A DNA stretch of 3,161 bases from Escherichia phage ECO95 1-6-1. The notes beneath the pieces are model-generated. The model did not search any database and had not been told where the DNA came from. It saw nothing but the letters and a program-made list of their open reading frames with translations. Location of the stretch: the sequence record OR845352.1. One strand, 5' to 3'. Each line of letters begins with the position of its first letter. Position 1 is the first letter of the stretch. Of this stretch, positions 1,258 to 1,502 are shown in pieces. A program made the translations under genes and the position numbers.

Positions 1258-1349
1258 TAACTGAGCCGTAGCCACTGGCCATCCTGAACTAATCAGTGAT
1301 AGTTACGCTGCGGCCTTCTACACATGACCTTCGCGAAAGCGGGTGGCAA

Positions 1350-1369
1350 GAGGTTGCGATAACAACCTC
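1350..1369 (+). repeat. Short hairpin or inverted repeat (GAGGTTG, 6-nt loop, CAACCTC) followed by CTGCCGTTTTG
   Basis: 7-bp perfect inverted repeat at 1350-1356 and 1363-1369 with loop CGATAA, and a short T tract 6 nt downstream. Could be a weak terminator or RNA structure in the tRNA-holin spacer. Confidence 0.35.
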
Positions 1370-1398
1370 CTGCCGTTTTGCCCGTGCATATCGGTCAC

Positions 1399-1450
1399 GA
1401 ACAAATCTGATTACTAAACACAGTAGCCTGGATTTGTTCTATCAGTAATC
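1399..1450 (+). repeat. Inverted-repeat cluster in the tRNA-holin intergenic region
   Basis: GAACAAATC at 1399-1407 is the exact reverse complement of GATTTGTTC at 1431-1439 (9 bp, 23-nt spacer). A second pair, GATTACT (1409-1415) and AGTAATC (1444-1450), is interleaved in A-B...A'-B' order, so the two cannot form a single simple hairpin. Confidence 0.5.
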
Positions 1451-1502
1451 GACCTTATTCCTAATTCAATAGAGCAAATCCCCTCAATAAAGGGGGTAGA
1501 GC

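Follow-up and report, generated by a model that had tools for sequence, protein, structure and literature searches.

Organization of the locus

We analysed a window of 3,161 nt from Escherichia phage ECO95 1-6-1 (OR845352.1), and all coordinates given without a source are positions in this window. The gene for the Q antiterminator lies at 520–1038 (Pfam Phage_antitermQ). The late promoter pR' (1016–1045, + strand; TTGACA, an 18-nt spacer and CATAAT) was found by a promoter scan with 11/12 matches, and it is collinear with the annotated -35 and -10 elements of pR' in phage 21 (L002, 707–735). Window positions 518–1319 give an 83% alignment with phage 21, whose terminator is annotated at 744–791 (L002), directly 5' of tRNA-Asn. 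By this homology, the Q-antiterminated terminator tR' was placed at 1054–1100 (+ strand), with GGTGGCTTTTTTTA as its last part. Two tRNA genes follow on the + strand, tRNA-Asn(GTT) at 1101–1175 and tRNA-Thr(TGT) at 1182–1257, both detected by ARAGORN and by Rfam (55 and 61 bits). Beyond a gap of 245 bp (1258–1502) lies the gene of a class II, HP1-family holin (1503–1706, + strand; Pfam Phage_holin_2_3, E=5.6e-21). This gene opens with a dual-start motif: ATG at 1503, TAC, CGT and ATG at 1512 encode Met1-Tyr-Arg-Met4 (M-Y-R-M), with a basic residue between the two methionines. The order Q, late promoter, tRNAs, gap, holin, proposed in a preliminary description of this DNA, is thus confirmed by Pfam, the promoter scan, ARAGORN and Rfam.

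The same description saw no plausible ORF in the gap. A 50-aa ORF with a GTG start does exist at 1296–1448. The statement holds, since variable sites are spread evenly over the three codon positions of this ORF (30/24/28) and internal stops occur in 53 of 149 variants. We rejected a coding role for the ORF, which shows no codon periodicity, is interrupted in a third of the variants and has no Pfam match.

The gap is homologous to the lambda late-operon leader

Positions 1259–1498 are 92.5% identical over 240 nt to lambda 44945–45181, a stretch located directly 5' of gene S. Homologues of this segment were present in 188 phage records; of 5426 complete E. coli genomes, 1130 had one. Its conservation equals or exceeds that of the flanking genes: in phage BTP1 the spacer is 98.8% identical and the longer match 95.7%, and in phage Oslo the values are 97.1% and 94.5%. 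Part of this conservation could stem from recent horizontal spread rather than from selection. Judged from its sequence, the 245-bp gap appears to be an untranslated leader of the lysis genes that is conserved, rich in structure and nearly base for base that of lambda.

The leader consists of two sub-modules. Sub-module A (1258–1328, + strand) is the 3' trailer of tRNA-Thr and contains a long imperfect hairpin (outer stem 1265–1272/1307–1314), predicted in both the minimum free energy (MFE) and centroid folds. Its outer stem is almost invariant among 76 unique variants and therefore allows no covariation test. It is common to lambda, phage 21 and SfI, of which phage 21 and SfI share only 1258–1319. 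Sub-module B (1329–1498, + strand) is the core leader, found 5' of the holin gene in lambda-, HK97-, Sf6- and P22-type phages. Its identity is 92–97% in lambda-type copies and 73–79% in P22, epsilon34 and ES18, where it can be aligned up to the holin ATG. In these P22-type phages the leader stands 5' of holin gene 13 and is a diverged homologue that keeps the order of elements described below (hairpin H2, arm 1, an invariant arm 2, arm 3 and the Shine-Dalgarno hairpin), but lacks sub-module A, the U-tail of H2 and the repeat 1409–1415/1444–1450.

The two leaders differ in what surrounds them. The lambda leader follows the post-tR' segment of that phage, whereas the leader of the window follows two tRNAs. 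Lambda and many of its relatives retain the leader without any tRNA, and in lambda ARAGORN found no tRNA remnants, the only trace being a 13-nt resemblance to the 3' end of tRNA-Thr. The lambda holin is the class I protein S (M-K-M), unlike the class II HP1-family holin of the window (M-Y-R-M).

The leader has a fixed position before unrelated holins

In about 230 related loci, the holin start codon always adjoins the leader. The first scan gave 118 loci in which we could call an ORF downstream; in 116 of them, the holin begins 0–16 nt past the end of the match, and the remaining two are P22-type loci whose diverged leader extends up to the start codon. Two unrelated holin families occur in these 118 loci, the 107-aa lambda S type (95 loci) and the 67-aa class II type (23 loci). 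A start of the form M-x-(x)-M is present in nearly every holin class found behind the leader, and the residue between the methionines is usually basic.

Comparative alignment had been set beforehand as the test of cargo insertion within the spacer. In the roughly 230 related loci, we found no gene-sized insertion within 1259–1498 or between leader and holin, and the biggest insertion inside the leader was about 20 nt, in one loop. The variable slot of these phages is located upstream of the leader, between tR' and position 1259. It is filled here by two tRNAs and in relatives holds a lambda-type long inverted repeat, a deletion or a tRNA remnant.

The layout had also been likened to that of Stx-converting phages, a comparison that is right for gene order and fails for the sequence of the interval. 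Phage 933W (Q, pR', tR', ileZ-argN-argO, stxAB, esterase, S) shares with the window the succession of antiterminator, late promoter, terminator, tRNAs and lysis cassette. Its interval, however, holds 4.4 kb of genes, against a conserved leader of 245 nt in the window, and both the tRNAs and the holin differ. A sensitive blastn search of 933W 20000–29000 gave no match to the spacer itself; all it detected was similarity between the tRNAs and, at the holin start, a weak match of 22 nt (E=0.14). No Stx phage was present among the 188 matching phage records.

A hairpin over the holin Shine-Dalgarno sequence resembles lambda sdi

Immediately 5' of the holin start, positions 1478–1497 (+ strand) form a hairpin in both the predicted MFE and centroid folds, which the preliminary description had overlooked. 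Its arms are AUCCCCU and AGGGGGU, separated by the loop CAAUAA, and the 3' arm contains the Shine-Dalgarno sequence of the holin (GGGGG, 1492–1496). The element is homologous to lambda AUCCCCUUAUUGGGGGU, directly 5' of S. As in lambda, a GC-rich hairpin covers the Shine-Dalgarno sequence and a dual-start holin lies behind it; the differences are in the loop (UUAUU in lambda) and in the 4 nt closest to the ATG. Among the variants listed, only a few lack this hairpin, which has free loops of 4–17 nt and covarying stems: CCCC/GGGG, CCUCAC/GUGAGG (the stem of P22-type leaders) and CCUCC/GGAGG.

The control of start-site choice by sdi in lambda is said to have been described by Blasi et al. in 1989. 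Homology, a stem-loop over the Shine-Dalgarno sequence and a dual-start holin together place the element of the window with the sdi-type leaders. The function of the lambda sdi element has been stated (PMC3359269), and by analogy the 1478–1497 stem would set the ratio of initiation at the two holin starts.

Upstream structures are conserved in position and pairing

The three repeats of the preliminary description were all recovered: the 7-bp hairpin (1350–1356/1363–1369), the 9-bp inverted repeat (1399–1407/1431–1439) and the interleaved 7-bp repeat (1409–1415/1444–1450). The gap contains more repeats than chance would give: 2000 dinucleotide shuffles predict 0.47 7-mer inverted-repeat seeds and six are present (P=0.0005), and a 9-mer repeat occurs in 2% of such shuffles. 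Folding of the + strand RNA, a kind of check that had been suggested, gave z=-4.76 and predicted the hairpin of the tRNA trailer as well as that at 1478–1497. A longer inverted repeat of 13 nt (1430–1442/1469–1481) had been missed.

The 7-bp hairpin forms the centre of a larger one, H2 (1345–1380, + strand), with a stem of 12 positions (1345–1356/1363–1374), the loop CGATAA and the tail GTTTTG. The stem has 11 Watson-Crick pairs, seven of them G-C, and one A.C mismatch, and thus qualifies as a GC-rich hairpin. One pair, 1354–1365, is compensatory, being U-A or C-G (46 versus 46). In divergent lineages (the groups of L322, L323 and L341), the whole stem is replaced by another sequence at the same place. 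A simple terminator scan did not call H2, as GUUUUG has four U and the scan needs five of eight. The U-tail occurs only in lambda-type copies; P22-type copies have UGAUCUG or UGAUUUG, and no U-run follows H2 in the divergent lineages, so that a conserved U-tract as in intrinsic terminators is missing. Termination therefore cannot be the universal role of H2. We consider this hairpin a candidate back-up terminator or insulator.

Pairing of H2 was better on the minus strand (95.7% of cells, against 86.9% on the + strand), in sequence sets collected in part with an anchor on the right arm and with a purine-rich left arm, which together bias the counts towards A.C changes. The purine-rich left arm may account for this difference, which a role as + strand RNA leaves unexplained. 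A minus-strand role for H2 was considered and rejected, as that strand has neither a promoter nor a U-run after H2.

The 9-bp repeat turned out to involve an invariant arm for which two partners compete. Arm 1 (GAACAAATC, 1399–1407, + strand) pairs with arm 2 (GGATTTGTTCTAT, 1430–1442, + strand), and this shared middle arm can pair instead with arm 3 (ATAGAGCAAATCC, 1469–1481, + strand), which overlaps the 5' side of the last hairpin. The segment GGATTTGTTC of arm 2 was invariant in 110 unique sequences, collected via an anchor located elsewhere. For arm 1 with arm 2, 94% of cells were paired, the core GAACAAA/TTTGTTC was invariant and all changes were G.U-compatible; the pairing is preserved with a shifted register in P22-type copies. 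For arm 2 with arm 3, 97.4% were paired, and the changes were limited to A->G (U.G on the + strand) and a compensatory U-A/A-U swap at 1440–1471. The RNAalifold consensus of the + strand contains the helix of arms 2 and 3. As a pattern this helix is a plain 10-bp palindrome, and the matches listed from the genome collection were chance hairpins in unrelated bacteria.

Taken together, H2 and the helix of arms 2 and 3 had 91.4% paired cells, compared with 40–48% when the partners were slid, although most helix arms are invariant and much of this pairing therefore carries no covariation information. The interleaved 7-bp repeat is not conserved: it was paired in 72% of cells overall and is broken in most P22-type copies, and we rejected it as a pseudoknot partner on these grounds.

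A cis-acting leader is the best explanation

The preliminary description offered several readings of the gap, one of them a regulatory RNA structure within the late transcript. This one is supported: hairpins are retained, with compensatory or wobble-only changes, through P22-type copies at 73–79% identity. Overall, its observations were confirmed, while its interpretation was mostly wrong and supported in part. From the observed homology, position, non-coding nature and structural conservation, we propose, with a probability of roughly 0.6, that the lysis-cassette mRNA has this interval as its 5' untranslated leader, a cis-acting + strand RNA that insulates and tunes the lysis genes.

Under this proposal, Q would let RNA polymerase past tR' so that the leader is transcribed from pR', and in tRNA-bearing phages its 5' end would be produced by 3' processing of tRNA-Thr. 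The hairpin at 1478–1497 would bury the Shine-Dalgarno sequence, affect the choice between antiholin and holin starts and in this way help to time lysis. We infer a second function upstream, where the stem of the tRNA trailer, the GC-rich stem 1345–1374 with its short U-tail and the helices of arms 1, 2 and 3 would form a barrier. Polymerases that leak past tR' or transcribe the tRNAs in a lysogen would be stopped, or their RNA cut, before the lethal lysis genes, and Q-modified polymerase would disregard the barrier. The leader lies where lysis timing would be controlled and where a lysogen would be guarded against leaky holin expression.

In line with such insulation, a lysogen of BTP1 (98.8% identity in the spacer) has both tRNAs among its top-expressed features and its lysis genes at TPM 10–20 (PMC7067206); tRNA stability confounds this contrast. 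The lytic operon of BTP1 has been described as starting right after the tRNAs (PMC7067206).

Tandem terminators and RNase III sites were reportedly found in the lambda late leader by Luk and Szybalski in 1983 and by Daniels et al. in 1988. Should they map to lambda 44945–45181, they would be what experiments have seen of H1 and H2.

Alternative explanations

A leader common to phages with otherwise unrelated flanks would, for that reason, double as a passive homologous crossover point. It is conceivable, if distinctly less probable than the leader reading, that this is all it is: a patch of homology for swapping Q/late-promoter and lysis modules, with no function of its own besides the known Shine-Dalgarno hairpin. 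All combinations of flanks are indeed seen, with a lambda-type, 21-type or 254-aa Q, with tRNAs or none, and with class I or class II holins. Homology breakpoints recur on the left at 1259, 1329, 1342 and about 1355 and on the right at 1443, 1484 and 1498, and visible recombinants (L085, L185, L341) switch type within invariant arms. Yet a mere linker does not predict compensatory changes in stems beside freely drifting loops, a fixed short spacing to the start codon, or the survival of the same architecture at 73–79% identity in P22-type phages. The suggestion of a recombination target thus stands as far as a shared homologous linker with crossovers in invariant blocks is meant, and not for site-specific recombination. 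The repeat arms are 23–28 nt apart instead of being inverted around a 6–8-bp core, the window contains no recombinase gene, and the breakpoints behave like homologous crossovers in conserved blocks.

A separate trans-acting small RNA is improbable. It could be the tRNA 3' trailer 1258–1380 ending at H2, or a minus-strand antisense RNA using H2; in either form it would work like known prophage sRNAs and sponges from tRNA spacers. Since the tRNAs are highly expressed in BTP1 lysogens, such a trailer would be produced; pairing of H2 is better on the minus strand (a bias that may simply reflect the purine-rich left arm), and sRNA genes adjoin the holin operon in Stx-type prophages. The sRNAs AgvB, AsxR and PasA/PasC occupy the equivalent neighbourhood in lambdoid prophages of EHEC/EPEC, 3' of pR' and next to the holin-lysozyme genes. 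However, these sRNAs are 51–60 nt long, and their genes are convergent or antisense and have transcription start sites of their own, whereas a scan of both strands of the interval revealed neither a promoter-like site nor the promoter–terminator pair of an sRNA gene. The sole terminator-like call was the complement of the Shine-Dalgarno hairpin, within chance expectation, and no U-run follows H2 on the minus strand. An Rfam cmscan of 1258–1502 at E<=10, with the prophage families AgvB (RF02702), AsxR (RF02703), STnc100 and Esr41 included, returned just a chance CRISPR-repeat match (E=7.6). Moreover, lambda and many relatives keep the element without a tRNA. The earlier suggestion of an sRNA is consequently unsupported.

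Even less probable is a DNA-level site in which three copies of GAACAAATC / GATTTGTTC serve as operators for a phage or host protein. The copies, of 9–10 bp, are nearly invariant and occur in direct and inverted orientation. Arm 3, however, tolerates only A->G transitions, which keep U.G pairing in the + strand RNA and alter a DNA site; the arms are 23–30 bp apart, unlike typical operators, and the loop that separates them is free to vary in both length and sequence.

An empty cargo slot or scar of cargo exchange, in which the position of a toxin-type moron was left vacant, has next to no likelihood: it draws on positional analogy only, namely the shared order of Q, pR', tR', tRNAs and lysis genes, the stxAB and other genes between the tRNAs and S in 933W, and the location of the gap between pR'/tR' and the lysis genes in a zone 3' of pR' described as a moron site (PMC4104026), and is refuted by end-to-end conservation with lambda, which has neither tRNAs nor cargo, by the lack of gene-sized insertions in the leader or before the holin in about 230 loci, by the lack of homology to the 933W interval and by the location of relatives' insertions upstream of 1259.

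Implications and a possible RNA switch

The leader is already known as a sequence, a classic but neglected stretch of lambda whose upstream structures have received little study. Only its incomplete understanding sets it apart from the ordinary: a role is known for the last hairpin alone, and the rest of the structure is strongly conserved and has no Rfam family. About one in five complete E. coli genomes carries it, unannotated, as do many phages of Salmonella and Shigella. Its proper label is lysis-gene leader, rather than hypothetical protein, as in a few records, or free insertion site. For phage engineering, cargo placed here would disrupt the conserved regulatory leader in front of lethal genes; the site that tolerates cargo is upstream, at the tRNA position.

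A more specific version of the leader proposal, which we hold only tentatively and think rather unlikely, is a bistable RNA switch. [quoted passage not shown] In this scheme, pairing with arm 1 would leave the full hairpin that hides the Shine-Dalgarno sequence intact, and pairing with arm 3 would deprive it of its first two C residues. Co-transcriptional folding, upstream cleavage or a trans-acting factor could decide between the two pairings. If true, the switch would be an unrecognised layer of control above the sdi of lambda, common to class I and class II dual-start holins.

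Layout of the late-control and lysis region

The 3161-nt window covers late control and lysis in a Salmonella phage that is lambdoid or P22-like; its closest match is phage S.Kent 1-2-1 (99.9% across 1-2184). Its + strand encodes NinH (160-363), a 21-type Q antiterminator (520-1038), a class II holin of the HP1 family (1503-1706), a lysozyme (endolysin; 1678-2181), Rz (2166-2645) and the embedded Rz1 (2398-2583). A near-consensus promoter was found at 1016-1045 by promoter scan, tR' was placed at about 1054-1100 by homology to phage 21, and tRNA-Asn (1101-1175) and tRNA-Thr (1182-1257) follow. 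Phage 21 gave an 83% alignment with 518-1319, and its record annotates, in the order seen here, pR', a Q-binding element, a transcription start, a terminator and the same two tRNAs (Asn and Thr). The end of the holin ORF shares 29 nt (1678-1706) with the endolysin ORF; like that of phage 21, the endolysin has the hydrophobic N-terminus that is typical of the signal-anchor-release (SAR) type. The Rz and endolysin ORFs overlap by 16 nt (2166-2181), and the first ATG of Rz lies at 2178.

The gap between tRNA-Thr and the holin is a holin leader

The gap (1258-1502) is a holin leader of the lambda/P22 type, already known as a sequence. Positions 1259-1498 are 92.5% identical to lambda 44945-45181, a stretch that stops 4 bases before the S start codon; lambda has neither tRNAs nor cargo at the equivalent place. 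The leader is present in 188 phage records (among them lambda, HK97, HK75, Sf6, BTP1, SPN9CC and ST104) and in 1130 of 5426 complete E. coli genomes, almost never annotated. Its conservation equals or exceeds that of the neighbouring genes, with the spacer at 98.8% identity against 95.7% for the longer match in BTP1, and at 97.1% against 94.5% in Oslo. P22, epsilon34 and ES18 carry a diverged copy (73–79%), still alignable as far as the start codon of their holin (gene 13).

About 230 related loci were gathered from viral contigs with three different anchors. The first scan yielded 118 loci in which an ORF could be called downstream, and distance to the holin was counted in these: the following ORF was a holin in 118/118, starting 0–16 nt past the match end in 116, and in the remaining two, both P22-type, the diverged leader continues to the start codon. 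These holins were of the 107-aa lambda S type in 95 loci and of the 67-aa class II type found here in 23.

The preliminary description saw no plausible ORF in the gap, and we agree. A 50-aa GTG ORF is present at 1296-1448, but a coding role was rejected because its variable sites show no codon periodicity (30/24/28 over the three positions), internal stops interrupt it in 53 of 149 unique homologues, and it has no Pfam match. Since the leader lacks a coding signal, the "hypothetical protein" ORFs drawn over it in a few records (Dewey, Huey, epsilon34 gene 63, UAB_Phi20 and E. coli 2014C-4587) appear to be over-predictions.

Conserved hairpins in the leader

The three inverted repeats first described (7 bp at 1350-1369, 9 bp at 1399-1407/1431-1439 and 7 bp at 1409-1415/1444-1450) were recovered at exactly these positions. 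Six 7-mer inverted-repeat seeds were observed against 0.47 expected (P=0.0005; 2000 dinucleotide-preserving shuffles), and only 2% of shuffles yielded a 9-mer repeat. The RNA fold of 1258-1530 had z=-4.76 on the + strand and z=-4.07 on the - strand. The 7-bp hairpin proved to be the core of a 12-position stem, H2 (1345-1356/1363-1374), with one A.C mismatch and GTTTTG after it. We also found a 13-nt inverted repeat (1430-1442/1469-1481), absent from that description, and a GC-rich hairpin (1478-1497) that closes the sequence, its 3' arm being the Shine-Dalgarno sequence of the holin.

Across 110 distinct sequences, H2 and the 1430-1442/1469-1481 helix were 91.4% paired, against 40–48% in slid controls. 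The H2 pair 1354-1365 is truly compensatory (U-A 46, C-G 46, one-step intermediates 17), and 1349-1370 is a free mismatch. Lineages found with an anchor outside H2 have a wholly different stem sequence at the same place (e.g. AGGGATACTG / CAGTATCCCT), with loops that vary and are even inverted; one relative has CGTCAA vs TTGACG (L327 and L340 locus groups). The U-tail of H2 is restricted to lambda-type copies, and a canonical terminator U-tract was not found in the leader. Paired cells in H2 amounted to 95.7% on the minus strand vs 86.9% on the plus strand, where mismatches are mostly A.C, equivalent to G.U on the opposite strand, and RNAalifold selects H2 on the minus strand only. This bias may come partly from right-arm anchoring of some sequence sets and from the purine-rich left arm; neither a promoter nor a U-run supports an antisense RNA from H2.

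The 1430-1442/1469-1481 helix was 97.4% paired. Its left, middle arm (GGATTTGTTC) is invariant, also in a sequence set anchored elsewhere; its right arm (arm 3) varies only from A to G, giving U.G pairs on the + strand, and base pair 1440-1471 shows a U-A/A-U swap. The 9-bp repeat, which joins the middle arm to arm 1 (1399-1407), was 94% paired with an invariant GAACAAA/TTTGTTC core, and P22-type copies retain this pairing in a shifted register. The second 7-bp repeat, only 72% paired and broken in most P22-type copies, is treated as lineage-specific or fortuitous.

Only a few of the variants listed lack hairpin 1478-1497, which has free loops of 4–17 nt and covarying stems (CCCC/GGGG, CCUCAC/GUGAGG, CCUCC/GGAGG). 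It is the homologue of the lambda sdi stem-loop, which is stated to govern initiation at both start codons of S (PMC3359269). The holin here begins M-Y-R-M (1503-1514), and nearly all holin classes behind the leader have a pair of Met codons separated by one or two codons, commonly including one for a basic residue. The leader shows the sequence, hairpin and dual start of sdi. Starts in unrelated holin families include MKM, MKKM, MYRM, MFRM, MIRM, MKNM and MKRM. Dual-start Met pairs occur in unrelated families, and we therefore conclude that the leader and the dual-start motif travel together.

Proposed function of the leader

The interval is most likely a cis-acting + strand RNA leader. Of the roles first suggested, the evidence, with its conserved, covarying hairpins, supports a regulatory RNA structure in the late transcript. 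By homology to lambda, the last hairpin would control the holin start site. The upstream hairpins lie between constitutive RNAs (the tRNAs along with the short transcript from pR') and cell-killing genes, and would act as a barrier formed by a weak terminator and/or processing sites and overridden by Q-modified polymerase; the leader 5' end would be produced by tRNA 3' processing. Tandem terminators as well as RNase III sites have been reported in the late leader of lambda. In the BTP1 lysogen, the tRNAs rank with the most highly expressed features, lysis genes reach a TPM of 10–20, and the lytic operon is described as starting directly after the tRNAs (PMC7067206); these observations fit such a barrier and a tRNA-processed 5' end. 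The value of the finding lies in this upstream structure, strongly conserved yet unstudied.

The middle arm can pair with either arm 1 or arm 3, and the first two C residues of the Shine-Dalgarno hairpin also belong to arm 3, which makes an RNA switch modulating the sdi hairpin possible. In the modelled folds of the window sequence, the two constrained conformers differed by about 1 to 1.6 kcal/mol (-25.2 vs -24.1 or -23.6); arm 1:middle arm pairing was favoured in 94% of 145 variants, by a mean of 2.6 kcal/mol.

Mosaicism, small RNAs and cargo

Left homology breaks recur at 1259 (one or two bases past the tRNA CCA end), 1232 (leaving a tRNA-Thr 3' remnant), 1329, 1342 and about 1355, and right breaks at 1443, 1484 and 1498; in phage 21 and SfI the shared part is limited to 1258-1319. 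Every combination of Q type (lambda-type, 21-type, 254-aa), presence or absence of tRNAs, and class I or II holin occurs across the leader, and in the recombinant loci L085, L185 and L341 the type switch falls within the invariant arms. This free combination of flanks, with switches in invariant arms, argues that the leader acts as a homologous crossover patch. The suggested recombination target thus stands in that form, with no sign of site-specific recombination. Several tRNA-less relatives retain homology from 1232, towards the 3' end of tRNA-Thr, and over the 13 nt that precede the leader, tRNA-less, lambda-type copies read ACAGCACAACCCA vs AACCAGCACCA in the window, suggesting that the left edge of the leader descends from a tRNA 3' end.

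As for an sRNA, PasA/PasC/PasD1 adjoin the holin operon in related prophage/phage regions, where the Rfam families AgvB, AsxR, STnc100 and Esr41 lie near Pas sRNA genes (Pas-sRNA survey). An Rfam search of the leader gave no family match.

The idea of an empty cargo slot fails under the refuting condition first set for it: the gap is conserved against lambda, and the largest insertion within the leader in about 230 loci is a roughly 20-nt loop expansion, none being gene-sized. Among the testable hallmarks of a moron site, the leader has the position only. Stx phage 933W has an analogous gene order but no homologue of the spacer was found in it, and there are no Stx phages among the 188 leader-matching records.

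The variable slot lies upstream of the leader and is filled here by the tRNAs. It runs from tR' to 1259, with 210–962 nt from the Q stop codon to the leader; its content is either the two tRNAs, small unknown inserts, or a lambda-type segment based on an 18-bp inverted repeat whose loop is hypervariable, and it is empty in copies with homology from 1329 onward, such as HK97. In tRNA-less loci (L017 2871-3050, L020, L109 10443-10765 and lambda, L001, about 1000-1145), the 18-bp repeat CACAACAGGTAAGAGCATT ... AGTGCTCTTATCGTTGTG occupies the equivalent of 1101-1257, with loops of about 30 to 210 nt and unrelated sequence; it resembles either a long RNA stem that may be an RNase III site or a place prone to small insertions. 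Some relatives (L040 1533-2236, also L057, L085 and L119) have an insertion of about 700 bp directly after the pR' -10 box (between 1045 and 1052). Its 170-aa product bears HNH and AP2-like motifs (DHINR...SENMQN...YRGVSW) and resembles a homing endonuclease, with its gene placed inside the region of the short pR'-tR' transcript.

Lineage-specific cargo is more likely at 2640-3161 than in the tRNA-holin gap. These 520 bp after Rz gave no blastn match among 50,697 phage records. They include a very AT-rich tract at about 2900-3060, and at 3109, behind a GGAGG ribosome-binding site, a new ORF opens that extends past the window end.
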